Origin: Clostridia bacterium
Lineage (GTDB): Bacteria > Bacillota > Clostridia > Oscillospirales > CAG-272
Assembly (NCBI GenBank): GCA_017483195.1
Contig: JAFULR010000016.1
Location: forward strand, 7,169 to 71,168
Reading direction: 5' to 3'
Length of the DNA stretch: 64,000 nucleotides
Positions 31,821 to 50,484 of this stretch are shown one piece after another. Each line of letters opens with the position of its first letter. Position 1 is the stretch's first letter. Below the pieces are notes generated by a model. The model was given only the letters and a program-made list of their open reading frames with translations. It was not told the DNA's origin and did not search any database. A program made the translations under genes and the position numbers.

Positions 31821-32008
31821 GTTCATACTTTACGTTATTGTATGAACCTTTTTAACGTGCGTATTATAACATAAAAATCAAGTTTTGTCAACATATGTTG
31901 AGAATTGTTAGCATAATATACAATTTTTATTTTTCAAAAGGCTCTAAAATACAGCAAGTTGCATATTGTATGGATAAAATGGTTCATACAATAACGTATT
32001 ATATGAAC
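31821..32008 (-). promoter_or_regulatory. Candidate invertible promoter (switch 1), OFF orientation
   Basis: Sites GTTCATACTT-TACGTTA-TTGTATGAAC (31821-31847) and GTTCATACAA-TAACGTA-TTATATGAAC (31982-32008) have reverse-complementary cores; between them is a minus-strand TTGACA(31891-31886)-17 bp-TATAAT(31868-31863). Confidence 0.8.
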
Positions 32009-32057
32009 CATTACCACTTTTGGCTTTAAGGAGAGCGTTATTTCGAGCGAGGTAGTT

Positions 32058-32972
32058 ATGGGAACGGTAGTTACAACGTTGGCACAATGGTTTAAAGAAA
32101 ACCCAAAAATAGCTTCCGAGTGGGATAGCGCATCCAACACGCACCTTGATCCCGAAATTAACGGAATGGGCGTCAATCAAAAGGCATGGTGGATCTGCCC
32201 CAAGGGACACCGCTACGATGCGTGGGTATTTTCTCGCACTCTTAACGGCATGGGCTGTCCATACTGCAAGGGAAAAAGAACCTTAGCGGGCTTCAACGAT
32301 CTCGCCACCTTCCGCCCCGACGTTTTAGAAAAATGGGATTTTGAAAAAAATACTGATATCACACCTGCCGAAGTGACAGAATTTTCGCACAAAAAGGTCT
32401 GGTGGAAGTGCGAGAAGGGCCACTCTTGGCAAGCGCGAGTCGGAGCGATAACGAGCGTCAAGGAGGGCTTTTCGGGCTGTCCGTACTGCTCGGGAAAATA
32501 CGCTATCACGGGCGAAACGGATCTCGCAACGCGTTTTCCGGAGATCGCGGCGCAGTGGTGCTACGAGTTAAACGAGGAAACGCCTGACAAAGTGAGTTAC
32601 CAATCGCACAAATCGGTCTTTTGGAAATGCGAACGCGGCCACACCTGGCAGGCAAAGGTCGAATCACGAACGGGCAAACAAAAATCGGGTTGTCCCTATT
32701 GTTCGGGCTATCGACTTTGGACAGGGTACAATGACCTCGCAACGATGCGCCCAGACATAGCCGCAGAATGGAACCACGAGAAAAACGGTGATCTTAAGCC
32801 CACGGACGTATTAAGAAACTGCCGCGAACGCGTTTGGTGGAAATGCGCCGAGGGGCACGAGTGGCAAACGACAGTTCTTGCCCGCGCAAAGAAAAACGGA
32901 ACAAATTGCCCCATCTGCTCACGAAAGAAAAAGCCTTCCCCTGAGGGTAGCGAAGCGGCACGAGCGCAATGA
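32058..32972 (+). CDS. Zinc-ribbon repeat protein (DUF4379-like, 4 repeats)
   Basis: Four units of about 70 aa: (P)EIAAEW..EKN...P..V......VWWKC..GH.W...V..R.....CPxC. Confidence 0.85.
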   Translation: MGTVVTTLAQWFKENPKIASEWDSASNTHLDPEINGMGVNQKAWWICPKGHRYDAWVFSRTLNGMGCPYCKGKRTLAGFNDLATFRPDVLEKWDFEKNTDITPAEVTEFSHKKVWWKCEKGHSWQARVGAITSVKEGFSGCPYCSGKYAITGETDLATRFPEIAAQWCYELNEETPDKVSYQSHKSVFWKCERGHTWQAKVESRTGKQKSGCPYCSGYRLWTGYNDLATMRPDIAAEWNHEKNGDLKPTDVLRNCRERVWWKCAEGHEWQTTVLARAKKNGTNCPICSRKKKPSPEGSEAARAQ

Positions 32973-33074
32973 ATAACAGTCCAGTGGACTGTTAGAACGC
33001 GAGTGGACCGAGCCCACGCGGACCCCCAAAACTCGACTGCGCTCGTTTCGGGGAACCCCTACCGCAGGCGAGAC
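32946..33074. repeat. About 80-bp MITE-like element with a nested 48-bp insertion
   Basis: GGTAGCGAAGCGGCACGAGCGCAATGAATAACAGTC...GACTGTTAGAACGCGAGTGGACCGAGCCC[insert]GCAGGCGAGAC; other copies at 41656-41736 (reverse complement) and 42327-42407. Confidence 0.85.
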
Positions 33075-33432
33075 AAGGGGGCGAACACATAGCTAAATTC
33101 AGGTCAAAACACGGTTTTGCTCGCAAAACTTTGTCGTAAGACAAAGAGTGTTTTGATAGGCGCGCAAACCATACTCTCGATAACCGTTAAATTTCACGCG
33201 CGGCGTATGAGGGGAGCGAAATCCGCACGAATCAAGGTCAATAATCTAAACGTAACACGCGACCTTACAGGCACGTTTACATAAGCAAAAACAAAAATCC
33301 CGCGCAGTTTTTCGACCGCGTGCCCGACGCGTAAGCGTCATCCTCGAGCGAAAGCGAAGGATCTTGGGCGCGCATGCGAAAATCCGGCGCGGAGAACAAC
33401 AAATTTTTAAAAACATTACGGAGGTTATAGTT

Positions 33433-34044
33433 TTGTTTAACAGAAGAAACAAATTAATAGTTGTTGTAATTGCGGTTGTATTGATTGCAATTGCGGTGGT
33501 TGCTGCTGTTGTGCTTGTTAATGATACAAACAACAAAAAGGCAATTGGCATTGAAATAGTAACTGCACCTGTGGATCTTGAGTACTATAAGTACGATACT
33601 CTTGACCTTACGGGTTTGTCTGTAAAGCTCAGAAAGAACAATGCTCAGTATGACGAGATGATCGATGTTTCAAGGCTAACGGTTACTGGCTTTGACAGCA
33701 CGGTAGTTACCGAGAGACAGACGGTTACAGTTTCCTATGAGGGATTTACCGCAACGTTCGCAGTTAAGATTGAGGAGCTTCCCGCACCGAAGCCTGCGGT
33801 TGTTGGACTTAAACTCGAAATGGACGAGGGATATGAATTAAAGACAGAATACAAGGTTGGAGAAGCATTGGATCTGTCCCATATGTATTTGGTGGTTACT
33901 TATTCTGATGGAACGACTGCAAGAATCTCTGTAACACTTGATCATGTTTCAGGATTTGATAGTCGCAGACCTGCAACGGAGCAGAGAATTAAGGTATCCT
34001 ACGGAGGCTTGTTTACAAAATATTATGTAAACATCGTGGAATAA
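33433..34044 (+). CDS. Membrane-anchored protein with two bacterial Ig-like (Big_3-type) domains
   Basis: TTG start after GGAGG; N-terminal TM helix; two repeats of EY..G..LDL.G/H..........V.GFDS......Q.V.VSY.G. Confidence 0.8.
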   Translation: MFNRRNKLIVVVIAVVLIAIAVVAAVVLVNDTNNKKAIGIEIVTAPVDLEYYKYDTLDLTGLSVKLRKNNAQYDEMIDVSRLTVTGFDSTVVTERQTVTVSYEGFTATFAVKIEELPAPKPAVVGLKLEMDEGYELKTEYKVGEALDLSHMYLVVTYSDGTTARISVTLDHVSGFDSRRPATEQRIKVSYGGLFTKYYVNIVE

Positions 34045-34136
34045 AAATAAATTACAGAAGTCAGTAAACCGTGGCCGTGAAAACGACACGATTACATAAA
34101 TTAATTAGTTAATAAACATTACGGAGGAAAAAAGTA

Positions 34137-37100
34137 ATGAGAAACAACAAACAGAAGGGTTTCACCCTTGTTGAGTTGCTGGTCGTTATCGCGATTTTAG
34201 CGATACTTGCGACTGTTGCGACTGTTGGATACACTGCTTTTATTAAGCAGGCGCACGTATCTAACGATGAGAACGTAGCAACACAGCTCAACCATTTTAC
34301 GGATGCGCTTAAAGCGGATTCGAATAGCCCAGTCTACGAAAAATTGCAGGCGAACGGCGGCAAGATAACCGTAGACAATGTTCGTGATATTACTGACTAC
34401 ATTCTCACAGATAGCGGACTTGGTACTCTCGTTCCTCAGTCTGCAGATTATGGATATCACTTCTATTTCGACCTTGATGCACAGGAATACGTGCTTATCG
34501 GCGACGACGATCCCAGAATGTTGTCTATGTCTCCTCTTGGCAGACTTTTTGCAGGTGCGGCTGAGTACTCACTCACAATACACCCCGAGCAGTGCCTCAC
34601 CAAGGATAGCAGATACTTCCTTGTTGAAACAGGAACAGAGCTTGCTCGTCTTGTAGCTGAATTCAAGGAAATTTCCGACAAAGACAAATTGAGCGCATAC
34701 CACACATCCGTTTCTACTTATGAAACAGATGCTAGAGGTAAGCTCGTAGGTCTTATCGCATTGGTTGAAAGAACTGTTTTCACAACTAATGTAGGACATT
34801 TGGTTGTTGATACTACAAAGAATCACGATCACTTGTTTGTTCAGAAGGATTTGGTAGTTTCTAATAAAAATAACCACGAAATTACAGGTCTTGACGGCGT
34901 TACTGTTATCGACAAAACACATCCTTTGGTAGCTTTGCAGAGTGAACAGGTTATTGAAATCAGCATCAAGGATGACGTTACTCTTGCAACTCATTCTTGG
35001 TGGTTTGCAAACCCCGAGAAGGCTACTCTTGTAATTAAGGGTATTGCAGATCCTGCAACGCTTGCTACAAGAGTTGACATTGACTTTACAAATGCTAAAT
35101 TCATCCTTGATGATGGTAAGACTTATACATATAAGAATGGCTCCATTATGGATGCTGACGGAAATTCTACACCCGTAGAAGGAAAGAACAAGGTAAAGGA
35201 TTTCACTGTTACTTGTGACGGTGTGGAAGCAGGCGTAGTTGCATTCGGTAACTCCGGTAACAATACATACAGCTTGTACATCCATTACAACAAAACAGAA
35301 GCCTTCAACTTGGGCGCTACAGGATTCAAGGGCACAGTTTCTGATGTAAACATTTCCGGTACAGATGATGTCAAATTCGAGAAAATCTCCGGTTCTTCTA
35401 AATTGACAGTAACTGAAGACGGTAAGGTTCAGGTAACAGGTTACCCTGAAACAAATGACCTTACAGCAAAAATCAAAGTAACATGTGGCGTAGCTGAGCC
35501 TAAGACAATTGATGTTACTATTGTAAGAGTAACCAACGCTTCCGTTCCTTTCAATGGTAGCACATTGACTATGAGCGATAACAATAATACATTGACAATC
35601 AGCTACACAGGAAACAAGGTATTTACATTTGGTACTGCTTCTTTTGCAGACAACTCCTCCAATACAGGTATAAATATTGTAGCTGCAGACAAACAAGTGA
35701 CAATTACTCATGGTGCAGGTGACGTATTTACTATCAGCGACAATAAAACACTCACACTTAACAAGTTTGAGGGCACACAGACTTTCACAATTACAGTTGG
35801 TAAGATGAGCAAGACATTTACTGTAACTGTAGAAGACAACTCTAAGAATCCCTTTGACATTAAGTGGGATACCGATAAAGACGCAGGTATTAAGTACACA
35901 ACAAGCGGTGAAGGCGAGAATGCAGTAAAGATCCCCTCTTTCCTCTACCGTGTTGGTAACGATAATGCGATTACACTCGGCACTCTCTTCAATACTATAG
36001 AAGAGTTTAGCGGAAATGCAACACTTACTATTTACGATGCTTCTCAGAAGTCAGGAACCACTTATAAAGAAATCAATACTTCCAACCCCAATTTGAACGC
36101 ATCCTACGATGATGCTAAGACACTTTCTTACTCTGATTGGGCAAGCAAGAAAATCACTTTTAAGGGTGAAGGCGTAGCTATTATCGAAATTACTTACAAC
36201 AAGCAGACTGTTAAGGTTGCTGTTGAGGTTGTTGATGGTTACAATGTGTTGACATATGGTGATCTCTCTGCTAAGAATGCAAGCAATCAGACATACAAGA
36301 ACTTTGTTCTTCAAAATGATATTGAAATGCCCTCTGAGGGAGCTTTGAATTTGCAAGGCAATTTCTTTGGCAATGGATATACATTTGATATTACAAAGGG
36401 CAAGTACCACTATACCGAGGGTGGTCGCAATGGTATTATTACACTTTACGGTGGCGCACTTATGGATAACGTTGTAATTATCGGTGATAAGTACACAACA
36501 ATTTGTGACGCACATAAAAATGCTTATTATGTAGCTGCAATTGGTTTGGAGGGCGGTATACTCTCTAACTCCTATGTTTATGGCTGTCAGACACCCGTAC
36601 GTTCTACAGGTGGCAAGATCATCAATACCGTTCTTGATGGTGGCAGATTCGCAAACTTGATTTGTAAGGGTGGTAAAACAACTGTTGAAGACATCACAAC
36701 AATCAATCAAGCTACTGACAAATACTGTGGTTTGGGTATTGTAGTTGAGGGAGGTGCAACCTTGAATGTAGATGGTTCACTTACACAGCACAACTGGATT
36801 TCTTCAAGCGACAAAGCATTGATCACTGACAATACCATATCCACATTTTTTGATTTGATGTTTGGTATCAGTGAAATTAAATTCAATCATAGCAACGACT
36901 CTTGGGTTAACACAGGTATATTCCTTAAGGATGCGACAGCTATTGTAATTAATGCTCCTTCCAATTATATTAAAGTTGCAAAATCTTATTCTTCCATGGG
37001 TATTACCGCTACAGGTTACGCATACAGCTTCAATAATAGTGTATATAGCTTTACAGGCAAAGTAACTCCCAATGCGTATACTCCCGTAACACAGGGCGCT

Positions 37101-38696
37101 TATGCTCCTAAGCTTGAATGGACATACCCCGAAGGATACAATTCGACAACTAATACAATTACTATTAAAGTAGATGAAGGTGCAGTACTTGAGTTTGATC
37201 CCAACTTCTTGCTTGCATCTAAATACGGTAACAATTTGCAGGTTGTAGTAAAGGTAAACGGTCAGGATTATACAGGCAACAAGATTGCAATTAATAGCAC
37301 TGCTGATAACACATTTACAATCACTTACTCCTATACCGATACTTATGTTCATGATATGCTTGGTGCTGGAGTAGTAACATCCATCAACTATGTAGATACG
37401 GTTGAAGTTTCAGTTCAGGTTATTAAGCAAGTTGGTGCTCCCGACTTTACATTCCACTACGGAACAAATGGTAGTGCAAGTGCAGGTTCTCCTCACGTAA
37501 CACAACCCTCTACTACCGTATCAGGTATAGTTGTTACAGCAGGTGCTGATAAATACATTATGCCCGATGTATCCGCTACACAAGATAACAAGATCGGTTC
37601 TACAACTGTTAATAACGTTACTATCTACTACCCCATTGTTGATGGTATTAACGTTCGTTCCGGTGCTTCAACTGACTATGACTTCTTGAGATACTATCCC
37701 ATCTTCAAGGGTGTAACAATTTCGGATGATACTCGCTCCTTTGGTTACACAACTACAAAGGAAATGCCCTCATACTTCACTTGGGTATCCGCTTCAATAG
37801 ATAGTGGTAACTCTTCTTCTGGTTTAGCAACAGATAAAGAGACGGGTGCTATACTTTATACATGTTACAACGACACTTACTTGTCTCGTTATCAGACACA
37901 AAAAGGTAATACCGAAGGCGGCGGAACATCTGTGGTTAAGTACAGCTATCAGGCGGTTGATGGTAATACTTACTACTACTATATTGGTTATAGATTCTAT
38001 GATGAAGACGAAGGCGGTGCTTGTGTAACAGGTGACACGCTTGTAACACTCGCTGACGGTACACAGAAGGAAATTCGAGACGTAACTGCTGAAGATATTC
38101 TCCTTGTATGGAATCACTTCACAGGTAAGTACGATACAGTTCCTGCTGCAATCATCTTCAATCACGGATATGATTACAACACAGTTATTAAGCTTAACTT
38201 TAGCGATGGAACGCAGGTTAAGATGATTAACCTCCACCAGTTCCTCGATGCAGATCTTAATAAGTACGTTACTATCGATTCTGCTAATGTTCAGGATTAT
38301 GTTGGACACAACTTCGTAAAGCAGGATGGCGATTCTTACACAACAGTAACTCTCGAATCCTATGAAATTTCCGAAGAGTATATCGAAGCTTACGGTATCA
38401 TTTCCGCACTTCACTACAACTTCTTTGTTGAAGGCATGTTCTCAACCGACTTTAAGAAAGACGATTATGACCTCTTCAACTATTTCACAATGGGTGAAAA
38501 CATGATGTTCGATGCAGAACAGATGCAGAGCGATATCGACACATACGGTTTGTACACATATGAAGACTTCGCTGAATACCTCACATATGAGCAGTTCGTT
38601 GGATTCAATGTACAGTACTTCAAGATTGCAGTTGGCAAGGGATATTACACATATGAAGGTATTCTTGATTTGATTGCTACATATCTTGGCAAATAA
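34137..38696 (+). CDS. Giant type IV pilin-like protein (1519 aa) with a C-terminal Hint (Hedgehog/intein-like) domain
   Basis: Class III signal KQKG|FTLVELLVVIAILAILA; T/N/V/G-rich beta-type body; Hint blocks GGA|CVTGDTLVTLADG (Cys1296), INLHQFL and HYNFFVEGMFS; 83-aa tail. Confidence 0.88.
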   Translation: MRNNKQKGFTLVELLVVIAILAILATVATVGYTAFIKQAHVSNDENVATQLNHFTDALKADSNSPVYEKLQANGGKITVDNVRDITDYILTDSGLGTLVPQSADYGYHFYFDLDAQEYVLIGDDDPRMLSMSPLGRLFAGAAEYSLTIHPEQCLTKDSRYFLVETGTELARLVAEFKEISDKDKLSAYHTSVSTYETDARGKLVGLIALVERTVFTTNVGHLVVDTTKNHDHLFVQKDLVVSNKNNHEITGLDGVTVIDKTHPLVALQSEQVIEISIKDDVTLATHSWWFANPEKATLVIKGIADPATLATRVDIDFTNAKFILDDGKTYTYKNGSIMDADGNSTPVEGKNKVKDFTVTCDGVEAGVVAFGNSGNNTYSLYIHYNKTEAFNLGATGFKGTVSDVNISGTDDVKFEKISGSSKLTVTEDGKVQVTGYPETNDLTAKIKVTCGVAEPKTIDVTIVRVTNASVPFNGSTLTMSDNNNTLTISYTGNKVFTFGTASFADNSSNTGINIVAADKQVTITHGAGDVFTISDNKTLTLNKFEGTQTFTITVGKMSKTFTVTVEDNSKNPFDIKWDTDKDAGIKYTTSGEGENAVKIPSFLYRVGNDNAITLGTLFNTIEEFSGNATLTIYDASQKSGTTYKEINTSNPNLNASYDDAKTLSYSDWASKKITFKGEGVAIIEITYNKQTVKVAVEVVDGYNVLTYGDLSAKNASNQTYKNFVLQNDIEMPSEGALNLQGNFFGNGYTFDITKGKYHYTEGGRNGIITLYGGALMDNVVIIGDKYTTICDAHKNAYYVAAIGLEGGILSNSYVYGCQTPVRSTGGKIINTVLDGGRFANLICKGGKTTVEDITTINQATDKYCGLGIVVEGGATLNVDGSLTQHNWISSSDKALITDNTISTFFDLMFGISEIKFNHSNDSWVNTGIFLKDATAIVINAPSNYIKVAKSYSSMGITATGYAYSFNNSVYSFTGKVTPNAYTPVTQGAYAPKLEWTYPEGYNSTTNTITIKVDEGAVLEFDPNFLLASKYGNNLQVVVKVNGQDYTGNKIAINSTADNTFTITYSYTDTYVHDMLGAGVVTSINYVDTVEVSVQVIKQVGAPDFTFHYGTNGSASAGSPHVTQPSTTVSGIVVTAGADKYIMPDVSATQDNKIGSTTVNNVTIYYPIVDGINVRSGASTDYDFLRYYPIFKGVTISDDTRSFGYTTTKEMPSYFTWVSASIDSGNSSSGLATDKETGAILYTCYNDTYLSRYQTQKGNTEGGGTSVVKYSYQAVDGNTYYYYIGYRFYDEDEGGACVTGDTLVTLADGTQKEIRDVTAEDILLVWNHFTGKYDTVPAAIIFNHGYDYNTVIKLNFSDGTQVKMINLHQFLDADLNKYVTIDSANVQDYVGHNFVKQDGDSYTTVTLESYEISEEYIEAYGIISALHYNFFVEGMFSTDFKKDDYDLFNYFTMGENMMFDAEQMQSDIDTYGLYTYEDFAEYLTYEQFVGFNVQYFKIAVGKGYYTYEGILDLIATYLGK

Positions 38697-38757
38697 ACTA
38701 ATACATTTCTCACGCCACCCCCACGGGTGGCGTGGGTTAATTACAAAAGGAAAAATT

Positions 38758-39405
38758 ATGGCAAAATTAAAATCGAGAAACTCGAACAGAAAAATTATAA
38801 TCCTTGTTGCCTGTGTTGTGTTAGCACTAGTAATAGGTGCAACAGTGGCTGTTTTGCTTGTGCAGGAACAAAATCACGGCGAGCAGATTAGCCATATTAA
38901 TATCAGCTCTATGCCCAATGATAGGGAATACTATCTTGACGAAGCACTTGATATAACAGGATTATCCGTTCAGGTTGTTTTGAATAATGGTTCTTATTAT
39001 TTTGTTTCTGCTGATGAAGTGACTGTAACCGGATTTGACAGTTCAAAAGTTAAAGAAGAGTTGGTTTTAACTGTAAGATATCAGGGATTTACAGATACAT
39101 TCACGGTATCTGTTGAAGCGTTTCCTAAGCCTAAGCCCACACTTGTTTATATAGAGGTAAAGGACTATAAACCAACTTATACATGGGCTGAATGGCAGAG
39201 TAATTGGATAAATCTTGATGGAACATATATTGAGTGTCATTATAGCGACGACAGCACATATAGAGTTACATTGACTACAGCTCGTATCATTGACGGTCTC
39301 GAAGGCATAAACGGCCCCGGCACGTATACACTTACTGTTTACTATGACGAATATGAAAGCGGAGTATTTTGTACTACGACCTTCACTATTACAATAACAA
39401 ATTAA
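38758..39405 (+). CDS. Membrane-anchored bacterial Ig-like (Big_3-type) protein, paralog of 33433-34044
   Basis: N-terminal TM helix; EYYLDEALDITGLSV...VTVTGFDSS...LTVRYQGFT..F.V followed by PKPKP. Confidence 0.8.
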   Translation: MAKLKSRNSNRKIIILVACVVLALVIGATVAVLLVQEQNHGEQISHINISSMPNDREYYLDEALDITGLSVQVVLNNGSYYFVSADEVTVTGFDSSKVKEELVLTVRYQGFTDTFTVSVEAFPKPKPTLVYIEVKDYKPTYTWAEWQSNWINLDGTYIECHYSDDSTYRVTLTTARIIDGLEGINGPGTYTLTVYYDEYESGVFCTTTFTITITN

Positions 39406-39406
39406 T

Positions 39407-40183
39407 ATGCCAAGATTCAGTTTAACACACATAATATTTTTACTCTGCGTAGTGGCGTTTTTGGCGGGCACGATGTGGCTAATATCGAAGCTCAATCGCA
39501 AGTGGCAGAACGTGATGATCGTCATTGGAGCGCTTCTTTGCGCGGGCGGAATTTTCTTCCGCTACGGTATGGGGCTTTCCTTTGAGGACGGTTTCACTTG
39601 GAAAACACTCGGTATGGAGATGCTTCAGGTGTGCAATTTCAATTTCATTTTGGTTCTGCTTATGCTGATTCCGAAGTTTGAGCTTGCGCGACAGTACAGC
39701 ATATTTTTCTCGATGTTCGCCGCGTCCACAACGCTCGTTAGCCTTCAGTCGAATTGGGCGACGATGAATTGGTACGACCTCACGATTATGAACTCGCTTA
39801 TCAATCACGTTTTCATTATCGCAGTTCCGCTCTGGATGCTCTCCGCGCGCCGCTTGAAGCCCCGCAAGGAATATATTTGGACGGTTGCGGGCAGTGTTTT
39901 CATTTATATGACGGTGGTTGCGATAATCGTAACGGTGCTTATGAAAAACGGCGTAATAACCGATCCCACGCCGCATTATTCGTTTATTTACGATACGTAC
40001 GGCATTGAGGTGCTTGATTTCCTTTATTGGCTCATTCCGTGTCCCTATTTTTATCTTTATCCTCTCGGCCCGCTTATGGTAGCATTCTTTTACTTCCTTG
40101 CGTGGGCATTCAGAAACTATGAGGTGAAACCTTATTGGGAACCGGAACGCGATACAAACAAAGACAACCCCTTTGAGGAGTAA
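39407..40183 (+). CDS. YwaF/TMEM164-like integral membrane protein
   Basis: N-terminal FSLTHI, LQVCN (compare LPLHLC), INH, HYSFI and PCPYFYL in a multi-TM protein. Confidence 0.65.
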   Translation: MPRFSLTHIIFLLCVVAFLAGTMWLISKLNRKWQNVMIVIGALLCAGGIFFRYGMGLSFEDGFTWKTLGMEMLQVCNFNFILVLLMLIPKFELARQYSIFFSMFAASTTLVSLQSNWATMNWYDLTIMNSLINHVFIIAVPLWMLSARRLKPRKEYIWTVAGSVFIYMTVVAIIVTVLMKNGVITDPTPHYSFIYDTYGIEVLDFLYWLIPCPYFYLYPLGPLMVAFFYFLAWAFRNYEVKPYWEPERDTNKDNPFEE

Positions 40184-41454: not shown

Positions 41455-41469
41455 GCGGCAGCAATCCAC

Positions 41470-42560: not shown

Positions 42561-42590
42561 AAAACCCTCGGGAGATCCCGAGGGTTTTTA
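42561..42590. terminator. Terminator for the MATE gene (bidirectional)
   Basis: AAAACCCTCGGGA-ga-TCCCGAGGGTTTTT. Confidence 0.75.
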
Positions 42591-42595
42591 TTTGC

Positions 42596-43951
42596 TTAAA
42601 GCTCGATATTTTGCTGTTCTATCCGCTTCATTTCTTTTCTGAAAACGAGCAGAATTACCGCAGAAATCACGCACACCGACAAAACCGTAAGGGGGGCATT
42701 GAGCCACAATCCCGTGAGCCCCAAGCCGTATAGCGCGAAAATAAATATCATTGGGAAAATAAACGCCGTCCCAACTGAAATAAGGGTCGCGTAAAGCGAT
42801 TTTTCAACCGCCGTCATATAGCTCTGCGTTGCAAAAGCAAACCAGAACATAAGCTTTGATACTGCAAAAATTTTAAGCGCCTTTACCGCCTCGTTCAAAA
42901 AAGCGGTGTCCGTGCTTGTTGTGAAAAGGGAAACGAGAACGTCGGGAATAAACCACATCATAGCAAACGAAACGACCGAAACCGCCGCGCTCGCTCCAAA
43001 CGTCCATTTTGTGATCTTCTTGACTCGATCAAAGCGGCGCGCGCCCCAGTTATATCCGATCGCGGGCTGGAGTGAATCGCAAATTCCGTAGATCAAGGGC
43101 TGGATTATCTCGCCAACGTACATTTGTATTCCGTAAATTGCTACCGCACTGTCGCCACCCATGGAAATGAGCGCCTTGTTCATTGCGATCGAGGTTATTC
43201 TGCCCGAAACGTTATTAAGAAATATGGGCATTCCGCATTGGATTATCTTTTTCGTGGTTTTTACCGAGAAGCGCGGTTTGGTTATTTTCAACTGCATTTT
43301 GCCGATCGCGAACAGTGTGAATGCTATCAATACCGATGCGCCGAAGCAAATGCACGGAGCAAGCGCTGCGCTCCAGATACCCCATCTGAAAACAAAAAGG
43401 AATAAAAATTCAAGCAAGATGGTGGAAATACTTGTGCCGATATTGAGCCACATGCTAAGCTTTACCTTGCCTGAGATCCTTAAATAGTTATCAAAAGCAA
43501 ACGCCGCGGGGGATATGGGTGAGAAGAACGCATAAACGCGAATATATTCAACTCCGAGTCTTTGAGCCTCGGGGCTTGCGTCAAGAAAGTCGAGAATGAC
43601 GGGTGCGCCGAACCAAAGAACGAGTCCCATAAGCGCGCCTGCTCCCGTTATCATAAGAAGCGCGCAGGTGAATATGTTATTAGCTTCCTTTTCATCCTGC
43701 CTGCCGAGAGCTATTGAGATCGGCACTGCCGAGCCCACCGCCACAAGGTCGGAAAGGGAAAAGCTGATTATTACGAAGGGGAAGGCGATATTTATTGCCG
43801 CAAACGCGGTATCCCCAAGTATGTTTCCTATAAATATACCGTCAAACAAACCGAAAATGGCGGAGGCGAGCATACTTACAGCACCCGGTATTGCGGCTAT
43901 AAAGAACAGTCTCCACACAGTCGTTTTTAAGAAAAATTCCTTATGATCCAT
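42596..43951 (-). CDS. MATE family efflux transporter
   Basis: AIPG...FGLFDGIFIG..LG..AFAAINI.FP, LQPAIGYNWGARRFDRVK; about 12 TM. Confidence 0.93.
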   Translation of the reverse strand: MDHKEFFLKTTVWRLFFIAAIPGAVSMLASAIFGLFDGIFIGNILGDTAFAAINIAFPFVIISFSLSDLVAVGSAVPISIALGRQDEKEANNIFTCALLMITGAGALMGLVLWFGAPVILDFLDASPEAQRLGVEYIRVYAFFSPISPAAFAFDNYLRISGKVKLSMWLNIGTSISTILLEFLFLFVFRWGIWSAALAPCICFGASVLIAFTLFAIGKMQLKITKPRFSVKTTKKIIQCGMPIFLNNVSGRITSIAMNKALISMGGDSAVAIYGIQMYVGEIIQPLIYGICDSLQPAIGYNWGARRFDRVKKITKWTFGASAAVSVVSFAMMWFIPDVLVSLFTTSTDTAFLNEAVKALKIFAVSKLMFWFAFATQSYMTAVEKSLYATLISVGTAFIFPMIFIFALYGLGLTGLWLNAPLTVLSVCVISAVILLVFRKEMKRIEQQNIEL

Positions 43952-44014
43952 ATTATCCTCTTTCAAATTGATACCCATACATTATATATGAATATCCTTG
44001 AAAAGTCAATGGAT

Positions 44015-44977
44015 TCAGGTGTAAAATATTGTTTCGATACGCTTTTGACAGCCCTCGGGTGAGTATTTCCATGCCTCGAGCCTGTTTACGGTCTTGGGAT
44101 CGATATAATATCTGATGGCAGTGGGGTAATTGTTGCGAGCGGTTTTGTCGATCAGGATGAGCTTTATCTTCATTCTGTCCGTAAGTATGCTTTTTATATA
44201 TACGGATACTTCATCGCCGATCTGAAGGTCGCTGAGAACGGGGTCGTCATCCCTTAATTCCGCAAGCCCTGCAAGGTTTGGCGCAAGCTCCACAAAAACT
44301 CCGTAGCTCTCAATGCTTCTTACAATTCCGCTAACGGTCTGACCCGTGGAAAATTCCGCGGCGTTTTCCTTCCACGTGCCGAGAAGCTCCTTCATAGTGA
44401 CGTATATTCTGCCCGTTTCACGATCGTTGGATTTTACGGCGACGAATATCCTTTGTCCGTTATACAATCGGTCACGGGGGTGGCTTATGCGTGAGACCGA
44501 GATGCAATCTATGGACAAAAGCGATATCACTCCGCAGCCGATATCCACAAAGGCGCCGAAATTGTCAAGATGCGTTACCGCGGCGGGCAGGATATCCCCC
44601 GGAGCGAGTGATGAAAGATAAAAATCGCAGCATTCCTCTTGCGCCTCTTTGCGGGATAGGATCGCTACGTATGAGTCGCCCTCCTGCTTTATAGAGTGCA
44701 CCTTGAAGCAGACCGTTTTGCCAACCCTTGTGATGATCGCGATATCCTTTATGGGCTCGTTATTGACCGACAAAACACATTCTTCTTTTGGGATAATTCC
44801 TTTGATCCCAAACAAATTTACGTGAAGATTAAGCTCCTCGTCGCACATTATGACGTTTGATTCGAGTATTTTGCCTTCGCGCATGGCTCGCTCAATGCCG
44901 GCAAGGCTTGATATGTAAGACGTATTTTCTGTGGTGTGGATTCTGCTGCCCTCGGGCATAAAATGGCTTTTAAACAT
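44015..44977 (-). CDS. S1 RNA-binding domain protein (3 S1 repeats)
   Basis: VTHLDNFGAFVDIGCGV..LL, GIVRSIESYGVFVEL.PNLAGL. Confidence 0.88.
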   Translation of the reverse strand: MFKSHFMPEGSRIHTTENTSYISSLAGIERAMREGKILESNVIMCDEELNLHVNLFGIKGIIPKEECVLSVNNEPIKDIAIITRVGKTVCFKVHSIKQEGDSYVAILSRKEAQEECCDFYLSSLAPGDILPAAVTHLDNFGAFVDIGCGVISLLSIDCISVSRISHPRDRLYNGQRIFVAVKSNDRETGRIYVTMKELLGTWKENAAEFSTGQTVSGIVRSIESYGVFVELAPNLAGLAELRDDDPVLSDLQIGDEVSVYIKSILTDRMKIKLILIDKTARNNYPTAIRYYIDPKTVNRLEAWKYSPEGCQKRIETIFYT

Positions 44978-45153
44978 TGGTTTTTCCTCTCTTTTTGCTC
45001 ATTTATTCCAAAATATTAAATCCGGCGAAAAAATATTCAAAAAAATTTTAAAATGGCAAATGAGAAAAAACGAGGAAATCATATGAAAAAACGAGAAAAC
45101 GAGAGATTGATTGGCGATAAATTAAAATCGCAAAAAAAGTTTTCAAAAAGGTA

Positions 45154-45182
45154 TTGACAAAGGGGAATATATTTGTTATAAT
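45154..45182 (+). promoter_or_regulatory. sigmaA promoter of rplM-rpsI
   Basis: TTGACA-17 bp-TATAAT. Confidence 0.85.
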
Positions 45183-45229
45183 GTGCAAGGTTAAAAATCA
45201 TAACACAATTTTATTGGAGGAAACATTTA

Positions 45230-45658
45230 ATGTCAACTTATTTTGCTAATGCAAATACCATTGAAAGAAAATGGTACGTTATAGACGCTGCTAATAAGCC
45301 CCTCGGTAGAACTGCAGTTGCTGCTGCTAACATTCTCCGCGGTAAGCACCGTCCCGAATTCACACCCCACGCTGACTGCGGTGAATTCGTAATCATCATC
45401 AATGCTGATAAGGCTATTCTCACAGGTAGAAAGCTTGAGCAGAAGTACTACTACCATCACTCCGGTTACATCGGCGGTATGAAGGCTGTTCAGTACAAGA
45501 CTCTTATGGCTACAAAGCCCGAGCTTGCTATGACTCTTGCAGTTAAGGGCATGCTCCCCCACAACACACTTGGCGCAAAGGCTGCTACACGTCTTAAGGT
45601 TTATGCAGGCGCTAACCACAAGCACGAGGCTCAGAAGCCCGTTGCTTACGAAGTTTAA
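45230..45658 (+). CDS. rplM: 50S ribosomal protein L13
   Basis: [42 protein letters not shown]. Confidence 0.99.
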
Positions 45659-45678
45659 TGAAAGGTAGGACGAAGAAT

Positions 45679-46080
45679 ATGTATACAAGCTCAAAGCCCT
45701 ATTTTTACGGAACAGGTAGAAGAAAGAAATCCGTTGCCCGTGTAAGAATCGTTCCCGGTACAGGCGTTATTACAATCAACGGCAAGGATATCGACACATA
45801 TTTCGGTCTTGAGACACTCAAGCTCATCGTTAACCAGCCCTTCGGTGCTACCGGCACAGAGGGTAAGTGGGACATCATCGCTCTTGTAAACGGCGGCGGT
45901 ATCTCCGGTCAGGCAGGTGCAATCCGTCACGGCCTTGCTCGTGCACTCGTTGCAGCTGACGAGGCTAACAAGCCCGCTCTTAAGGCAGCAGGCTTCCTTA
46001 CACGTGACCCTCGTATGAAGGAAAGAAAGAAGTACGGACTCAAGGGCGCTCGTCGTGCTCCTCAGTTCTCAAAGAGATAA
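45679..46080 (+). CDS. rpsI: 30S ribosomal protein S9
   Basis: [46 protein letters not shown]. Confidence 0.99.
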
Positions 46081-46101
46081 AAAACAACAAATTATGCTTT
46101 T

Positions 46102-46137
46102 TACAACACCTGCAGTTTTGCGGGTGTTGTTTTTTAT
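46102..46137 (+). terminator. Terminator after rpsI
   Basis: ACAACACCTGCA-gttt-TGCGGGTGTTGT followed by a T-run. Confidence 0.75.
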
Positions 46138-46307
46138 CTCTGTCGAGCTGAGGCTAACCCGAAGCACAGCATTCGGGTTATGTCGCCCTAAAAACATCAC
46201 ACTGTGATGTTTTCTTCACGGGCTCACAGTTCACAAAGAGATAATCCCCCACTTGGGATTGTTTCGATATACAAAAAAGCTCTGCTTTGGCGGGGATTTT
46301 TGTTTTG

Positions 46308-46423
46308 CGGACCGTCGAGGACGCCGGTCCCTACGAGGTTAGTTTGTGTTGGATACGGGAGGGGAGACCCCTCCCCTACGGTGAAGGATATTATATATTG
46401 TAGGGGAGGCGTTTCGCCTCCCG
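46308..46423. repeat. Three GTAG-footed REP palindromes
   Basis: 46308-46334 (minus), 46356-46379 (minus) and 46400-46423 (plus), all GTAGGG...CCG hairpins. Confidence 0.8.
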
Positions 46424-46535
46424 TTTTCAAAGGGCGGTTAAATTTGTAAAAAAATTCTGCTGTCCTATTTACTTTTGCTGAAATATATGATACAATGAAA
46501 CTGTTAATAGTCCTAATTCGTAGGAGACGCTTGAA

Positions 46536-46871
46536 ATGGAAGAAAATATTATCGCAGGTATTCTATTCTTAATATCATTATTTGCGCTTATAGCAAGCAT
46601 CCGTTCCTTTATGGGAAAAGGATTTCTTTTGAACAATGCATATATTTATGCTTCAAAAAAAGACAGAGAGAAAATGGATAAAGCGCCATATTACCGCCAA
46701 AGTGCAATCGTCTTTTTATTTATCGCTTTTATATTTATATTGAACGGCATTCAGCTCTTAACAAAGACCGAATGGCTATTCTACGTGGTCTTGACAGTGA
46801 TGGCGGCGACAGTAATATATGCTATTGCGTCGAGTATATTGATTGAGAAAAACAGAGGAAAAAAACAATGA
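46536..46871 (+). CDS. Small membrane protein (DUF3784-like)
   Basis: 3 TM helices with KGFLLNNAY.YASKKDREKMDK. Confidence 0.7.
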   Translation: MEENIIAGILFLISLFALIASIRSFMGKGFLLNNAYIYASKKDREKMDKAPYYRQSAIVFLFIAFIFILNGIQLLTKTEWLFYVVLTVMAATVIYAIASSILIEKNRGKKQ

Positions 46872-47131
46872 AAAAAGTATTTATGTGCAGTTTGGTTAAG
46901 GGTGGCTTGCTCGGAGGAGCAATATACGTTGAGCCCGATTCTGTTACTTATAAAACCAATAAGCTTACGGTTGATAAAAAGTATAGAAATTTAGTATTAC
47001 TCAAAAAGGACATAAAAGAAATCACCTGGAAGAGAGTAGTATTTCCCGTTGCTACGTTCCGTATGGCAAACGGCGAAGAATACAGTGTGATGATATTTAA
47101 TCGCGCGGGGTTTGAAAAAGCGTTAGGATAG
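46868..47131 (+). CDS. Hypothetical protein
   Basis: Overlaps the upstream stop (ATGA); RBS GAGG. Confidence 0.65.
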   Translation: MKKVFMCSLVKGGLLGGAIYVEPDSVTYKTNKLTVDKKYRNLVLLKKDIKEITWKRVVFPVATFRMANGEEYSVMIFNRAGFEKALG

Positions 47132-47142
47132 GGAGGATTATT

Positions 47143-47526
47143 ATGCCTGATAAAGTGATATGGATATTACTGTCTATATTTGTGATAGTATTTGCTGTTT
47201 GCATAGTTATCCTTGTAAGAGAAACCAAGAAAAAGAAAATGACCAAGGAAGAGCAGGATGCTTACTACGAGGAGTACTTTGCTAACGAGGGCGAGATAAC
47301 TCTGACCTACGCCGAGGTTGTGAACCTGACTTGCGGAACAAAGGTGATTGGAAGCAAATCCCCAAAATGCGTTGAGAGCTACGTTGTCACCTTTAGAGAT
47401 CAAAATGGCAAGATATTTCATATCGACGTTGATCGCGAGATGTATGATGCTATCGATATTGGTATGAGGGGACTTTTGCGTCTCGTTGATGGACATCTTA
47501 ACAGCTTTGAGCCGGATAATATTTGA
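47143..47526 (+). CDS. DUF2500-like single-TM protein
   Basis: N-terminal TM helix; YVVTF....V..EMYD.I..G.RG.L pattern; RBS GGGAGG. Confidence 0.6.
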   Translation: MPDKVIWILLSIFVIVFAVCIVILVRETKKKKMTKEEQDAYYEEYFANEGEITLTYAEVVNLTCGTKVIGSKSPKCVESYVVTFRDQNGKIFHIDVDREMYDAIDIGMRGLLRLVDGHLNSFEPDNI

Positions 47527-47544
47527 TTTTGACGAGGTGATAAA

Positions 47545-47874
47545 ATGGCAGGAGCAATAATTTGGAGCATAATAGTTTTCGGTTGCGGACTCTTGTTTTT
47601 GGGTATTGGTATTTATGCCTCAAAACGTGAGAAGCCGATGTGGTTTTACTCCGGAACGACGGTTGATGCATCAAAAATTAGCGACGTGAAGGCTTACAAC
47701 CGTGAAAATGCGAGAATGTGGGCGCTTTATTCGCTTTGGTATTTCGCCTCGGGTGCAGTATATTTTTGGAAGGCATGGATGGCAGTTGCCTTGCTCGTTC
47801 TCGCTTGCACGCTCGGAATGGGCATTTTGGCAGTTACATACCACAAAATCGAAAAGAAATACAAGGTAAAATAG
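47545..47874 (+). CDS. Small membrane protein
   Basis: RBS GAGGTG; 3 TM helices. Confidence 0.7.
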   Translation: MAGAIIWSIIVFGCGLLFLGIGIYASKREKPMWFYSGTTVDASKISDVKAYNRENARMWALYSLWYFASGAVYFWKAWMAVALLVLACTLGMGILAVTYHKIEKKYKVK

Positions 47875-48603
47875 ATGAATAAGCTTTATAAAAAGAGTGA
47901 AATTTGGTTTGCAATTTCGTGGATAATTGTTTACGTTGTGGGAGCTAGCATTGCGGACGAGCTTTCGCGTCTTGTTGGAATTGAAAAGGTATTCAGTGTG
48001 CCGTATTTGCTTGCCATGAGCATTCTTGCGATCATTTGGATGCGCAAAAACGGACTTTTTGAAAGATACGGGCTCTGCAAGACGGACGTTGAAGCGAAGA
48101 GATTTATTTATTACGTGCCCCTTATCGCGCTTGTTTCGTGTAATTTCTGGCTCGGAGTGAGCAAAAACGGCTCGTGGGCTGAATTTGCCCTCTATGCTGC
48201 AAGTATGCTTTGCGTTGGATTTTTGGAGGAGGTAATCTTCCGCGGATTTTTGTTTCGCGCTATGGAGAAGGACGGAGTAAGGAGCGCGATCGCGGTTTCG
48301 AGCGTGACCTTTGGAATTGGACATATAATAAATCTTTTCAACAGAAGCGGCGCGGAACTTTTACCGAACGCTTGTCAGGTAGTCTCGGCTATTGCGATAG
48401 GGTTTTTGTTCGTTGTGATAGCTTACAGAGGAAAGACCATCGTCCCGTGTGTTTTGGCGCATCAGTTTATCAACGTTTCAAGCTTTTTTGCAAACGAGAG
48501 CGCGCTGACGGACGGACTCAGGATCGCGCAGTCGGTCATTATTTGCGTTATCGCAATCGGATACGCCTTGATTCTTCTAAAATCTCTGCCCAAAAAAGAA
48601 TAG
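47875..48603 (+). CDS. CPBP (CAAX/Abi) family intramembrane metalloprotease
   Basis: EEVIFRG, FGIGH and HQFIN motifs. Confidence 0.88.
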   Translation: MNKLYKKSEIWFAISWIIVYVVGASIADELSRLVGIEKVFSVPYLLAMSILAIIWMRKNGLFERYGLCKTDVEAKRFIYYVPLIALVSCNFWLGVSKNGSWAEFALYAASMLCVGFLEEVIFRGFLFRAMEKDGVRSAIAVSSVTFGIGHIINLFNRSGAELLPNACQVVSAIAIGFLFVVIAYRGKTIVPCVLAHQFINVSSFFANESALTDGLRIAQSVIICVIAIGYALILLKSLPKKE

Positions 48604-48610
48604 CTTTTAT

Positions 48611-48640
48611 AAAAAAGCACTCCTCGGAGTGCTTTTTTTA
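48611..48640. terminator. Terminator
   Basis: AAAAAAGCACTCC-tc-GGAGTGCTTTTTT. Confidence 0.75.
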
Positions 48641-48708
48641 TTTTGCGCATGAAGTGACAAGTTTCTTATATTGAAAATGGTAGAATTGTATAAAAACGGA
48701 GGACGGTT

Positions 48709-49065
48709 ATGATAAAGGAAGAAAAACTATTTACTTTTGATGTTTGTGACGGAGCTCTCACCGTCAAGCTTGTGGGTGAGATAGATCATCACAGCGCAGT
48801 TAGTGTCAGGGCGGATATTGATTCGCTTATTTTTGAAAAACGCCCAAAAAAAGTGGTGCTCGATCTTTCTGAGATAAGCTTTATGGATAGCTCGGGATTG
48901 GGACTTATTATGGGACGCTATTCTCTTGTCCGTGAGCTTGGCGGCACACTGACTCTGCGCTCACCAACGGTGGCGGTAACTAAGATTTTAGCTCTTGCCG
49001 GTATGGAAAGGATAATAAAAATCGAGAAGGCATTTGAGGAGGATGATGAAAATGAAGAGAACTGA
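48709..49065 (+). CDS. spoIIAA: Anti-sigma F factor antagonist
   Basis: GEIDHHSA, FMDSSGLGLIMGRY. Confidence 0.93.
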   Translation: MIKEEKLFTFDVCDGALTVKLVGEIDHHSAVSVRADIDSLIFEKRPKKVVLDLSEISFMDSSGLGLIMGRYSLVRELGGTLTLRSPTVAVTKILALAGMERIIKIEKAFEEDDENEEN

Positions 49066-49504
49066 TATGCGTGGGAAGATACTGAATTCTATGAAGCTTA
49101 CGCTTCCCTCATATTCAATAAACGAGGGAATTGCGCGCGGCGCAGTAGCGGCTTTTTGCGCTCAGCTCGATCCTACTGCCGCAGAGCTTGGAGATATAAA
49201 ATGCGCGCTTTCGGAGGCGGTGACGAATGCAATTGTTCACGCATACCGAGATACTATAGGTGAAATTTACATAAGTGTTGAATTGATTGAAAATTCCATT
49301 GTCAGAATCAAGGTGAAGGATAAGGGATGTGGAATTTCGGACGTTAAATGCGCGCGTGCCCCGCTTTTTACCACGGATAGGGCGGGCGAGCGCAGCGGAA
49401 TGGGCTTTACTGTTATGGAGAGCTTTACGGATTCTATGAGAGTGTCGTCCAAGGTCGGAAAGGGAACGTCGGTCACACTTTATAAAAAGATTGAGGGAAG
49501 ATAA
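49052..49504 (+). CDS. spoIIAB: Anti-sigma F factor
   Basis: SEAVTNAIVHAY, DKGCGI, ERSGMGFTVMESF; start codon uncertain among 49043-49067. Confidence 0.95.
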   Translation: MKRTDMRGKILNSMKLTLPSYSINEGIARGAVAAFCAQLDPTAAELGDIKCALSEAVTNAIVHAYRDTIGEIYISVELIENSIVRIKVKDKGCGISDVKCARAPLFTTDRAGERSGMGFTVMESFTDSMRVSSKVGKGTSVTLYKKIEGR

Positions 49505-49522
49505 CCAATAAACGGAGGATCA

Positions 49523-50269
49523 ATGAACGCAATCAAGACGGAGCGGGGAGAGAGAAATCTCGATCTGATAATGCGCGCGCAGAGTGAGGACGAGGAGACC
49601 TCAATGCTTGCGCTTGAGGCTATAATTGAAGAAAATATGGGCCTTGTGCGCTCGATCGCGCTCCGCTTTCGCGATAGGGGAACGGATTACGAGGACCTTG
49701 TGCAGATAGGGATCATCGGGATGATGAAGGCGGTGCGCTCGTTTGATCCCGGCCGCGAGGTGGTGTTTTCGACCTATGCCGTGCCCCTTATTATGGGGGA
49801 GATCAAGCGGCATTTGCGCGATGACGGGCCCGTGAAGGTATCAAGGGTATATAAAAAGCTCTCGGCGGAGCTTGGCAGGGCACGAAACAAAATATTGACC
49901 GACGAGGGCAGGGAGCCGAGTATTTCGGAGCTTGCGCAGATCTGCGGAATATCGGTTGAGGATGCGGCGGTCGCGCTTGAAACGGTCAATCCGATAGCTT
50001 CTCTTTCAGAAACCTTTGGAGAGGATGAAAAGCTCACTCTTGAGAGTCAGCTTGCGTCCACGGACAGAGAAATAGAGAGGCTCAACGATAAAATTGCGCT
50101 CAGTCAAGCGATAAGCAGACTGCCCCGCGATTGGCAAAAAATAATAACTCTGAGATATTATCGCAATCTGACCCAGCAGCAGGTGGCGAACATAATGGGG
50201 CTTTCTCAGGTGAAGGTGTCGCGAGAAGAAAAAAAGATACTCACAGTTCTCAAAGGTGAGCTTCTGTGA
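49523..50269 (+). CDS. sigF: Sporulation sigma factor SigF
   Basis: NMGLVRSI, EDLVQIG.IG, FSTYAVPLIMGEIKR.LRDDG, TQQQVA..MGLSQVKVSR; third gene of the spoIIA operon. Confidence 0.92.
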   Translation: MNAIKTERGERNLDLIMRAQSEDEETSMLALEAIIEENMGLVRSIALRFRDRGTDYEDLVQIGIIGMMKAVRSFDPGREVVFSTYAVPLIMGEIKRHLRDDGPVKVSRVYKKLSAELGRARNKILTDEGREPSISELAQICGISVEDAAVALETVNPIASLSETFGEDEKLTLESQLASTDREIERLNDKIALSQAISRLPRDWQKIITLRYYRNLTQQQVANIMGLSQVKVSREEKKILTVLKGELL

Positions 50270-50319
50270 GTAACAAAGATTTAGATTTGTGCAAAATTCA
50301 GTTCTGAATATCAAAAAAA

Positions 50320-50484
50320 GTTCATACTATAATACATAGTATGAACCTGATATGAGTAGATTATACTCCTATTTGTTTGAAATGTCAACAGAAATTGAGA
50401 AAAAACAGTAAAAAAATATTGTTTTAGCCCGATTTTTCCTGAAAATCCATTAAAAAGGTTCATACTATGTATTATTATGTGAAC
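50320..50484 (-). promoter_or_regulatory. Candidate invertible promoter (switch 2), OFF orientation
   Basis: Sites GTTCATACTA-TAATACA-TAGTATGAAC (50320-50346) and GTTCATACTA-TGTATTA-TTATGTGAAC (50458-50484); between them is a minus-strand TTGACA(50388-50383)-17 bp-TATAAT(50365-50360). Confidence 0.82.

Follow-up and report, generated by a model that had tools for sequence, protein, structure and literature searches.

We analyzed a 64-kb stretch of DNA from the draft genome of a Clostridia bacterium (G000:C14:7169-71168, where G000 denotes the source genome; hereafter the window), in which two short promoter cassettes, termed switches 1 and 2, precede plus-strand genes starting at positions 32058 and 50517. 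The first of these genes encodes a DUF4379 protein, behind which a cluster of pilin-like genes follows, and the second encodes a pilin-like protein. The source genome is a 1.34-Mb draft in 29 contigs with 88.6% completeness, and the sequencing runs and depositor titles assign its lineage to uncultured, small-genome, ruminant-gut Clostridia. Each cassette consists of two inverted 27-bp sites that enclose a consensus sigma-A promoter. We interpret the two cassettes as promoter invertons of a family with at least four members in this genome, flipped most likely in trans by a stand-alone tyrosine recombinase encoded on contig C2 (hereafter the C2 enzyme), and we assign this interpretation a probability of about 0.65.

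Paired sites around consensus promoters

The strict site pattern (GTTCAYAYWW-N7-WWRTRTGAAC) matched the window exactly four times, at positions 31821-31847, 31982-32008, 50320-50346 and 50458-50484, compared with a mean of 0.00 and a maximum of 0 in 100 dinucleotide-preserving shuffles. Each 27-bp site is composed of a 10-bp arm, a 7-bp core and a second 10-bp arm, and the four sites form two pairs, spaced 161 bp (switch 1) and 138 bp (switch 2) from start to start. The distal site of switch 1 (31821-31847) reads GTTCATACTT-TACGTTA-TTGTATGAAC and its proximal site (31982-32008) reads GTTCATACAA-TAACGTA-TTATATGAAC; the corresponding sites of switch 2 are GTTCATACTA-TAATACA-TAGTATGAAC (50320-50346) and GTTCATACTA-TGTATTA-TTATGTGAAC (50458-50484). 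The cores are exact reverse complements within each pair and differ between the pairs, both sites of each pair are intact, and the inner arms are identical. The arms of switch 1 were also found independently by a repeat search, as a 34-nt inverted repeat with 88% complementarity and a separation of 120 nt.

The sites bound putatively invertible segments of 134 bp (31848-31981, switch 1) and 111 bp (50347-50457, switch 2), each of which contains one minus-strand TTGACA-17-TATAAT promoter that agrees with the consensus at 12 of 12 positions. The promoter of switch 1 (31891->31863) is TG-extended, with 15 bp between the end of its –10 hexamer and the distal site; for the promoter of switch 2 (50388->50360), this gap is 13 bp. 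Both promoters point leftward, away from the plus-strand genes, and we refer to this orientation as OFF. A preliminary description of this DNA had reported the four sites, the relationships among their cores and the two perfect promoters facing away from the downstream genes, and our analysis reproduced all of these features.

That description had counted two switches and had suggested scanning the genome for further site pairs and their downstream genes. The scan of the whole draft revealed two more clean pairs and one complex locus, and the number of switches was accordingly raised to at least four, with at least eight sites in four inverted pairs on three contigs. The first additional pair (G000:C21:2658/2795, cores TATGGTA/TACCATA) lies before a gene for a 426-amino-acid (aa) pilin-like protein, and its promoter faces a terminator hairpin. 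The second (G000:C22:12284/12401, cores TGTGCTA/TAGCACA) lies before a gene for a membrane-anchored, Thr-rich surface protein with BspA-type leucine-rich repeats (LRRs) of the LRR_5 type. Both pairs are in the OFF orientation. In the complex locus (G000:C15:98268-98609, L140), a half-degenerate site and a full site adjoin (cores TACCCTA/TAGGGTA, with 5 bp between them), arm fragments placed back to back occur at ~98450 together with a further site having the core TGGGGTA, and two TTGACT-17-TATAAT promoters both face the gene for a 237-aa membrane protein. This locus may represent a decayed, duplicated or more complex switch.

We scanned 41 genomes (the source genome and 40 relatives) with the strict pattern; the relatives were also scanned with three mismatches allowed, and the flanks of their recombinase genes were read. 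The strict pattern occurred in 3 of the 41 genomes (G000, G015 and G017), all belonging to one genus, and the reversed control pattern yielded zero matches in the 41 genomes. The relaxed scan and the recombinase flanks added pairs with related arms in five genomes (G006, G007, G022, G012 and G011), while three-mismatch matches in G004, G016 and G012:C322 had no partners, fell within coding DNA and were discarded as chance matches. Across the genus, the cores were exactly reverse-complementary in 14 out of 15 complete pairs; the sole mismatched pair (G015:C10) has a left site with three arm mismatches in addition to the core mismatch. For the orthologues of the C22 switch, the cores were TGTGCTA/TAGCACA in G000 and G015 and TGTGTTA/TAACACA in G006, so that both sides had changed and the match was kept. 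Because core matching and compensatory change are needed by recombination sites and not by operators, these results indicate that the elements are recombination sites. The 10-7-10 layout, with inverted arms around an asymmetric overlap that is identical in the two partners, likewise agrees with the core sites of tyrosine recombinases, in which this overlap measures 6-8 bp.

We also considered the explanation that the sites take no part in recombination and serve as operators for a dimeric regulator, or as RNA hairpins, on either side of a fixed outward promoter. Each site is palindromic and fit for a dimeric DNA-binding protein, the sites fold as RNA hairpins, one of which was scored as a terminator, and inversion was not seen in sequencing contigs (see below). 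However, an operator would have no need of asymmetric, reverse-complementary cores or of compensatory change, and a consensus promoter held within OFF cassettes would serve no gene. Moreover, the cassette occurs in both orientations relative to the adjacent gene, and tyrosine-recombinase genes lie beside the sites in five genomes. We accordingly regard this explanation as very improbable, the least probable of those that we weighed.

The arms are alike within a genome and divergent between genomes, in which they take forms such as GTTCAYAY, GTACRYAC, GTTCAYCTAT and RTCATATAG. When a 14-base pattern was searched over 185,579 species genomes, 57 stretches were obtained, compared with a rough chance estimate of ~35, and a partner site with a reverse-complementary core was present only in two members of the genus and in one metagenome-assembled genome (MAG) of Sedimentisphaerales. 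None of 21 metagenome-contig stretches had a partner site, and the four that were read (L111, L112, L113 and L118) were unrelated DNA. In the Sedimentisphaerales MAG (L059:2848-3630), a pair with the same arms, GTTCACATTT-GGGTATA-AAATGTGAAC and GTTCATACTT-TATACCC-AAATATGAAC, is separated by 222 bp and located directly before a tyrosine recombinase gene, which starts at the catalytic domain and of which 170 aa are encoded before the locus ends; a fixed promoter lies outside this pair. A Bacteroidetes MAG (L089:2638-2832) contains four arm-pattern sites within ~200 bp, at spacings of 42, 84 and 42 bp and with the cores ATTGCTT, ATCACTT, ATCACTT and ATCGGTT.

Recombinase genes and their association with the sites

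The source genome contains six tyrosine-recombinase genes and one 219-aa fragment of a serine-recombinase gene (C15), none of which is near a switch. Four of the tyrosine enzymes are integrases of 396-486 aa clustered on the low-GC contig C1. The C2 enzyme (G000:C2:19673-20599, outside the window) is a stand-alone tyrosine recombinase of 309 aa with SAM_3 and Phage_integrase domains, in which R149, K191, H253, R256, H279 and Y288 are present. Its gene adjoins a MATE transporter gene on one side and, on the other, what we take from its N-terminus to be a phosphofructokinase gene; the locus lies outside mobile elements, and its synteny is kept in G015. The remaining enzyme is Xer-like (G000:C9:3487-4488, 334 aa) and scored below both the XerC and the XerD equivalog cut-offs.

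Full-length homologues of the C2 enzyme were found in 11 of 22 other genomes of the genus, with identities of 47-96%, and in only 1 among a sample of 200 further genomes from the order. In four genomes, the homologue lies within ~300 bp of family-type sites: G001 (47%), G022 (51%), G012 (58%) and G218 (51%), the last having three such sites beside the gene. In G011, a paralogue with 39% identity is located between the sites of a matched pair. C2-family genes were thus found beside family-type sites in 5 of the 16 neighbourhoods examined. The 11 genomes of the genus without a C2 orthologue gave 13 three-mismatch matches, none of which was paired. The homologue of G218:C17 (L141:1501-2421) has H in place of the catalytic tyrosine (NRHVH versus NRYAH), yet stands beside the three sites.

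The Xer-like enzyme provides a different candidate, namely that the invertons are real and are flipped by this housekeeping recombinase. It is the sole Xer-like enzyme among the six tyrosine recombinases, and the sites are quasi-palindromic, as would be expected of a single-recombinase Xer system. In addition, the short recombinase beside the same-arm pair of the Sedimentisphaerales MAG shares 32% identity with the Xer-like enzyme (E 2e-16) and 23% with the C2 enzyme (E 7e-5), and is thus nearer to the former. However, the Xer-like gene was never found beside a site, in contrast to the C2 family. Its product is 86-89% identical in 20 of the 22 other genomes of the genus, including 11 without any site pair found, although the strict motif is present in only 2 of the 40 relatives and the arms are strongly divergent. 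Because the Xer-like enzyme is conserved in genomes without sites, it does not track the sites. C2-family proteins, on the other hand, are 39-62% identical between genomes with different arms, and since the arms diverge between genomes, such a fast-diverging partner fits better than a nearly invariant one. We therefore consider it unlikely that the Xer-like enzyme drives the switches. The preliminary description had pointed to a resemblance between an outer arm and the XerD-side arm of dif; as an account of mechanism, this resemblance is not supported, given the conservation of the Xer-like enzyme in genomes without sites.

A genus-wide dif candidate, GTTCAAAACAATTAATATTATTTGAAC, with one copy in at least eight genomes, proved to lie between the genes for ribosomal proteins L18 and S5 (rplR and rpsE) and was rejected. 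A conserved 27-bp palindrome, GTTCAAAACAATTAAT(A/T)TTATTTGAAC, occupies this spacer (L137:2251-2277 in G020 and L136:1629-1655 in G017) and is single-copy in at least eight genomes of the genus; it is probably not dif but a hairpin in the RNA of the spc operon. A scan of G000 for the XerD-arm motif gave one exact match and 33 one-mismatch matches, with no convincing dif among them. The sites of the cassettes number at least eight and occur in inverted pairs, whereas a Xer/dif system has a single site per replicon.

Other enzymes in the genome, namely the C1 integrase-like genes or the C15 serine-recombinase fragment, or else a gene missing from the draft, might also act on the cassettes. The C1 genes encode the integrases of 396-486 aa and are clustered on one low-GC contig. 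Serine invertases cross over at a 2-bp centre, which is a misfit with 27-bp sites having an odd, 7-bp centre, and the only serine gene found is a fragment. None of these genes shows a linkage to sites like that of the C2 family. The draft is nevertheless only 88.6% complete, and an excerpt of a study of Clostridioides difficile states that some of its switches need enzymes besides the recombinase RecV (PMC5903667). On balance, we consider an enzyme of this kind to be quite improbable, somewhat more so than the Xer-like enzyme.

The pattern of linkage and divergence suggests that the C2 enzyme acts in trans on the switches, to which we would give roughly two chances in three. The preliminary description had proposed a single unlinked recombinase. 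The unlinked part of this proposal is supported, in that no recombinase gene stands beside the window switches and the stand-alone C2 enzyme is the best candidate; its action on the switches is what we infer from the relatives.

Cassette orientation and the evidence on inversion

We measured 14 cassettes from the source genome and its relatives. The promoter matched the consensus at 11 or more of 12 positions in all of them, the gap between the end of the –10 hexamer and the site that the promoter fires through was 11-15 bp in 14 of 14, and the distance from the –35 hexamer to the other site was 48-112 bp. Relative to the neighbouring gene, 4 cassettes were ON (G015:C27a, G015:C10, G007:C30 and G022:C173), 9 were OFF and 1 was undetermined, these being different loci in different genomes. 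The cassette of G022:C173 (L132, G022:C173:31900-34000; positions 614-1250) has three sites, with the cores TATGACA, TGTCATA and TGTCATA, and is located between two divergent pilin genes, the products of which have the same 32 N-terminal residues. This arrangement resembles an either/or toggle, in which inversion would exchange one pilin for the other. In addition, contigs of three relatives break in or beside a switch (G015:C37, G006:C136 and G022:C4). The mixture of ON and OFF cassettes, the toggle of G022 and the contig breaks at cassettes together argue that the cassettes invert, at least on an evolutionary time scale. The start of G006:C136 (L129:1-75) is a stretch that resembles a sequencing adapter, followed directly by a switch promoter and one site.

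Several observations weigh against the interpretation of the cassettes as invertons flipped by the C2 enzyme. In G000, each of the four clean switches is OFF. The orientation is also the same among orthologous switches, as seen for switch 2 in G000 and G015, for the C22 switch in G000, G015 and G006, and for the C21 switch in G000 and G017. When the flanks of 11 relatives' switches were compared with G000, no orthologous locus was found in two orientations; the orientation was the same or the locus was absent from G000. We also checked Logan contigs of four sequencing runs (X1, X18, X19 and X4) over positions 31400-51200 of the window. In every one of the four, the contigs that crossed the window switches had the reference (OFF) orientation and no inverted form was seen, in contigs that drop minority orientations; similarly, none of the 15 joints listed out of 42 was a strand change at a switch. 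The beginning of one X19 contig at 31976, next to the right site of switch 1, is at most a hint. Runs X1-X3 hold the genome at high depth, ~130-150x. With respect to the enzyme, the C2 gene adjoins no switch in G000, no clear site pair was found in G013, G016 or G005 although each has a C2 orthologue, and the similarity of the Sedimentisphaerales recombinase described above belongs with these points. Furthermore, the related genomes are non-independent samples.

Part of this evidence would be expected if the cassettes had once inverted and were now fixed, either locked in the OFF state or flipping too rarely to matter, with their genes silent or served by other promoters. The uniform OFF state in G000, the shared orientation of orthologues and the single form in the contigs of four runs all agree with fixation, and decayed examples exist in the left site of G015:C10 and in the fragmentary C15 locus. 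However, the window pairs are intact with perfectly matched cores and identical inner arms, and the C2 enzyme retains all catalytic residues. The relatives' contigs break at switches, as is often so in assemblies of mixed populations, and the contigs of the four runs are incapable of showing minority orientations. We consider fixation unlikely, to about the same degree as the involvement of the Xer-like enzyme. In agreement with promoter invertons, inverted repeats surround a short segment, the segment contains a promoter, and the genome encodes a site-specific recombinase.

Downstream genes, proposed mechanism and comparison with known systems

The gene directly downstream of switch 2 (50517-51815, plus strand) encodes a 432-aa pilin-like protein with the prepilin N-terminus MKNAKKGFTLVELLVV (Pfam N_methyl, E 9.5e-8), and its G015 orthologue follows a switch that is 98% identical to switch 2. 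The first gene after switch 1 (32058-32972, plus strand) encodes a protein of 304 aa that contains four repeats of the treble-clef zinc finger DUF4379 (Pfam PF14311, E 1.8e-71), and a homologue of this gene also follows a recombinase-linked switch in G012. Interspersed repeats of ~390 bp separate the DUF4379 gene from a cluster of pilin-like and Big_3 genes identified by Pfam (33364-41356, plus strand), which encode in order a 226-aa Big_3 protein, a 1519-aa protein with N_methyl, a 243-aa Big_3 protein, a TMEM164-like protein and small pilins of 151 and 134 aa. The N_methyl domain is present in the 432-, 1519-, 151- and 134-aa proteins, as in type IV pilins, and the 304-aa protein is not a pilin. 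The placement of both switches upstream of pilin loci in the preliminary description therefore applies directly to switch 2; for switch 1 the DUF4379 gene comes first and the pilin-like genes follow only after the repeats. Within positions 32900-34200, no promoter-like site was found, and a weak hairpin is present at 33129-33146; the pilin-like cluster may be co-transcribed from switch 1. The genome as a whole contains a T2SSE/PilB-type ATPase gene (C9:51854-52981) and eight pilin-motif genes, of which the one at C9:67453 is preceded by a fixed promoter instead of a switch. No Rfam family or tRNA was identified in scans of window positions 30000-52000.

Some further features were observed around the cassettes. 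A complete gene of the sigma-70 family (regions 2, 3 and 4) occupies window positions 49523-50269, with 50 bp between its end and the distal site of switch 2; the promoter of this switch, in the OFF state, is directed at the 3' end of the gene. GC-rich interspersed repeats resembling miniature inverted-repeat transposable elements (MITEs) lie at window positions 32945-33360 and 41402-42570. They include a 105-nt inverted repeat (41643-41747 / 42316-42420, 98% complementary), and the two regions have a 70-nt repeat copy in common. The summed depth of these MITE-like repeats was ~10-17x that of their flanks (2580 versus ~150 in X1), which indicates that they are multicopy in the organism or its community, and a similar sequence lies upstream of a G015 switch (L036:2650-2950). 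One X1 contig (depth 150) links 33059 to 41950 with 32 other letters between them, so that the 8.9-kb pilin-like cluster is skipped. This joint, with a shorter side of 27 letters and both ends in repeats, may be a repeat artefact or a cluster-less variant.

The distal sites have properties of terminators in the OFF direction. On the minus strand, the distal site of switch 1 forms a hairpin of -10.3 kcal/mol followed by U6, and that of switch 2 forms a hairpin of -14.6 kcal/mol followed by U7, the latter being scored as an intrinsic terminator by a scan. The proximal sites also fold (-12.7 kcal/mol for switch 1 and -8.3 kcal/mol for switch 2) and have no U-run. Among 12 cassettes, some of which are orthologues and hence non-independent, 9 have at least six T in the first eight bases beyond the distal site, and none has so many beyond the proximal site. 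These properties suggest that the distal site ends the OFF-state transcript. The leftward transcript of switch 1 would also have in its path a hairpin terminator of 13 pairs at 31706-31738, located after the upstream hexapeptide-transferase gene.

We propose the following mechanism. The tyrosine recombinase would bind both 10-bp arms of each 27-bp site and pair the two inverted sites of one cassette, and strand exchange across the 7-bp core (T-N5-A) would flip a 90-134-bp segment with its consensus sigma-A promoter. In the OFF state, the promoter would fire outwards from a start a few bases before the distal site, and the hairpin and U-run would terminate the transcript. Inversion would give the ON state, in which transcription would pass across the proximal site, where there is no U-run, and enter the surface-protein gene. 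For tyrosine recombinases, the overlap regions of partner sites must be identical; if only sites with the same core recombine, each cassette would flip on its own. Switches 1 and 2 lie 18.5 kb from each other on one contig; their cores differ and, at differences of 2-3 of the five central bases, should keep the switches from cross-recombining. As to selection for distinct cores, the smallest distance between the cores of different switches is 2 in G000 and G015 and 1 in G006, which equals that of random T-N5-A cores and gives no evidence either way. In its fullest form, the model states that one small recombinase runs at least four mutually insulated switches with their identity in five central bases, that the distal site kills the OFF transcript within ~40 nt, that arms and enzyme co-diverged across species into orthogonal recombinase/site pairs, and that any combination of pilin-like and LRR adhesins could be displayed. 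We put this full model forward tentatively, with somewhat less than even confidence.

The principle is already known, since promoter invertons with unlinked tyrosine recombinases are textbook knowledge in gut bacteria, and promoter inversion is a well-known route of surface variation there. Particular to this case are a site logic that is very easily read, targets of the pilin-like and LRR kinds in ruminant-gut Clostridia, and the possible built-in terminator of the OFF state. Behind the switches lie genes for type IV pilin-like proteins of unusual size, a giant cluster of pilin-like genes and a gene for a BspA-type LRR protein; the products are probably adhesins. Our full-text search of a collection of papers found none that describes invertible promoters upstream of type IV pilin genes in Firmicutes, although catalogues of invertons in Clostridia exist. 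Caution is needed in annotation, since with OFF as the majority orientation such genes may seem silent or without a promoter in assemblies.

The fimS element of Escherichia coli is a single switch of ~300 bp with 9-bp repeats and adjacent recombinase genes. Unlike fimS, the present system has several switches, an unlinked candidate enzyme, 27-bp arm-core-arm sites and elements of 90-134 bp. The likeness lies in an invertible promoter, driven by tyrosine recombinases (FimB and FimE), before a pilus or fimbria gene, as mentioned in an excerpt of PMC5903667. The same excerpt describes Mpi of Bacteroides fragilis, in which one enzyme performs many unlinked promoter inversions for surface molecules (PMC5903667). 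Mpi is, however, a serine recombinase, whereas the layout of the present sites fits a tyrosine enzyme and the sole serine gene is a fragment.

The closest described system is that of RecV in C. difficile, an unlinked tyrosine recombinase that, according to the excerpt, flips several scattered short switches (flgB, cwpV and others) in surface phase variation, some of which need other enzymes (PMC5903667). The likeness consists of several short switches in Clostridia and an unlinked tyrosine recombinase, here a candidate. In that excerpt, the inverted repeats of RecV differ between switches and no shared arm is stated, whereas the 10-bp arms here are common and only the pair-specific 7-bp core differs; the pilin-like and LRR targets are also unlike those named for RecV. 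In a defined gut community, excerpts of a recent study report that Clostridia inverton group 139 and tyrosine invertase group 35 were statistically linked, with repeats of 14-26 bp ~230 bp apart and both orientations measured in culture (PMC11892184). In that account (PMC11892184), the invertase lay within 5 kb of nearly every inverton, whereas the window switches have none nearby.

The arm-core-arm sites are also like those of the Xer/dif system, which are bound by tyrosine recombinases; the preliminary description had likened one arm to the XerD side of Firmicute dif. The dif site occurs once per chromosome and has a 6-bp centre. Unlike dif, the sites here number at least eight, are arranged in inverted pairs with 7-bp centres, and have a promoter between them. 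In engineered heterospecific lox variants and in the R64 shufflon (Rci/sfx), identity of the central overlap decides which partners recombine. The R64 shufflon diversifies a type IV pilus protein, and its common core lets any pair of sites recombine, so that coding segments are shuffled. Unlike in the shufflon, the cores here are pair-specific and it is a promoter that is flipped; unlike the lox variants, the system is natural. Its site logic of common arms, a pair-specific core and compensatory change could supply orthogonal recombinase/site pairs for genetic tools. If the proposed mechanism is correct, the switches would constitute a natural counterpart of the engineered heterospecific lox sites, allowing combinatorial display of pilin-like and LRR adhesins.

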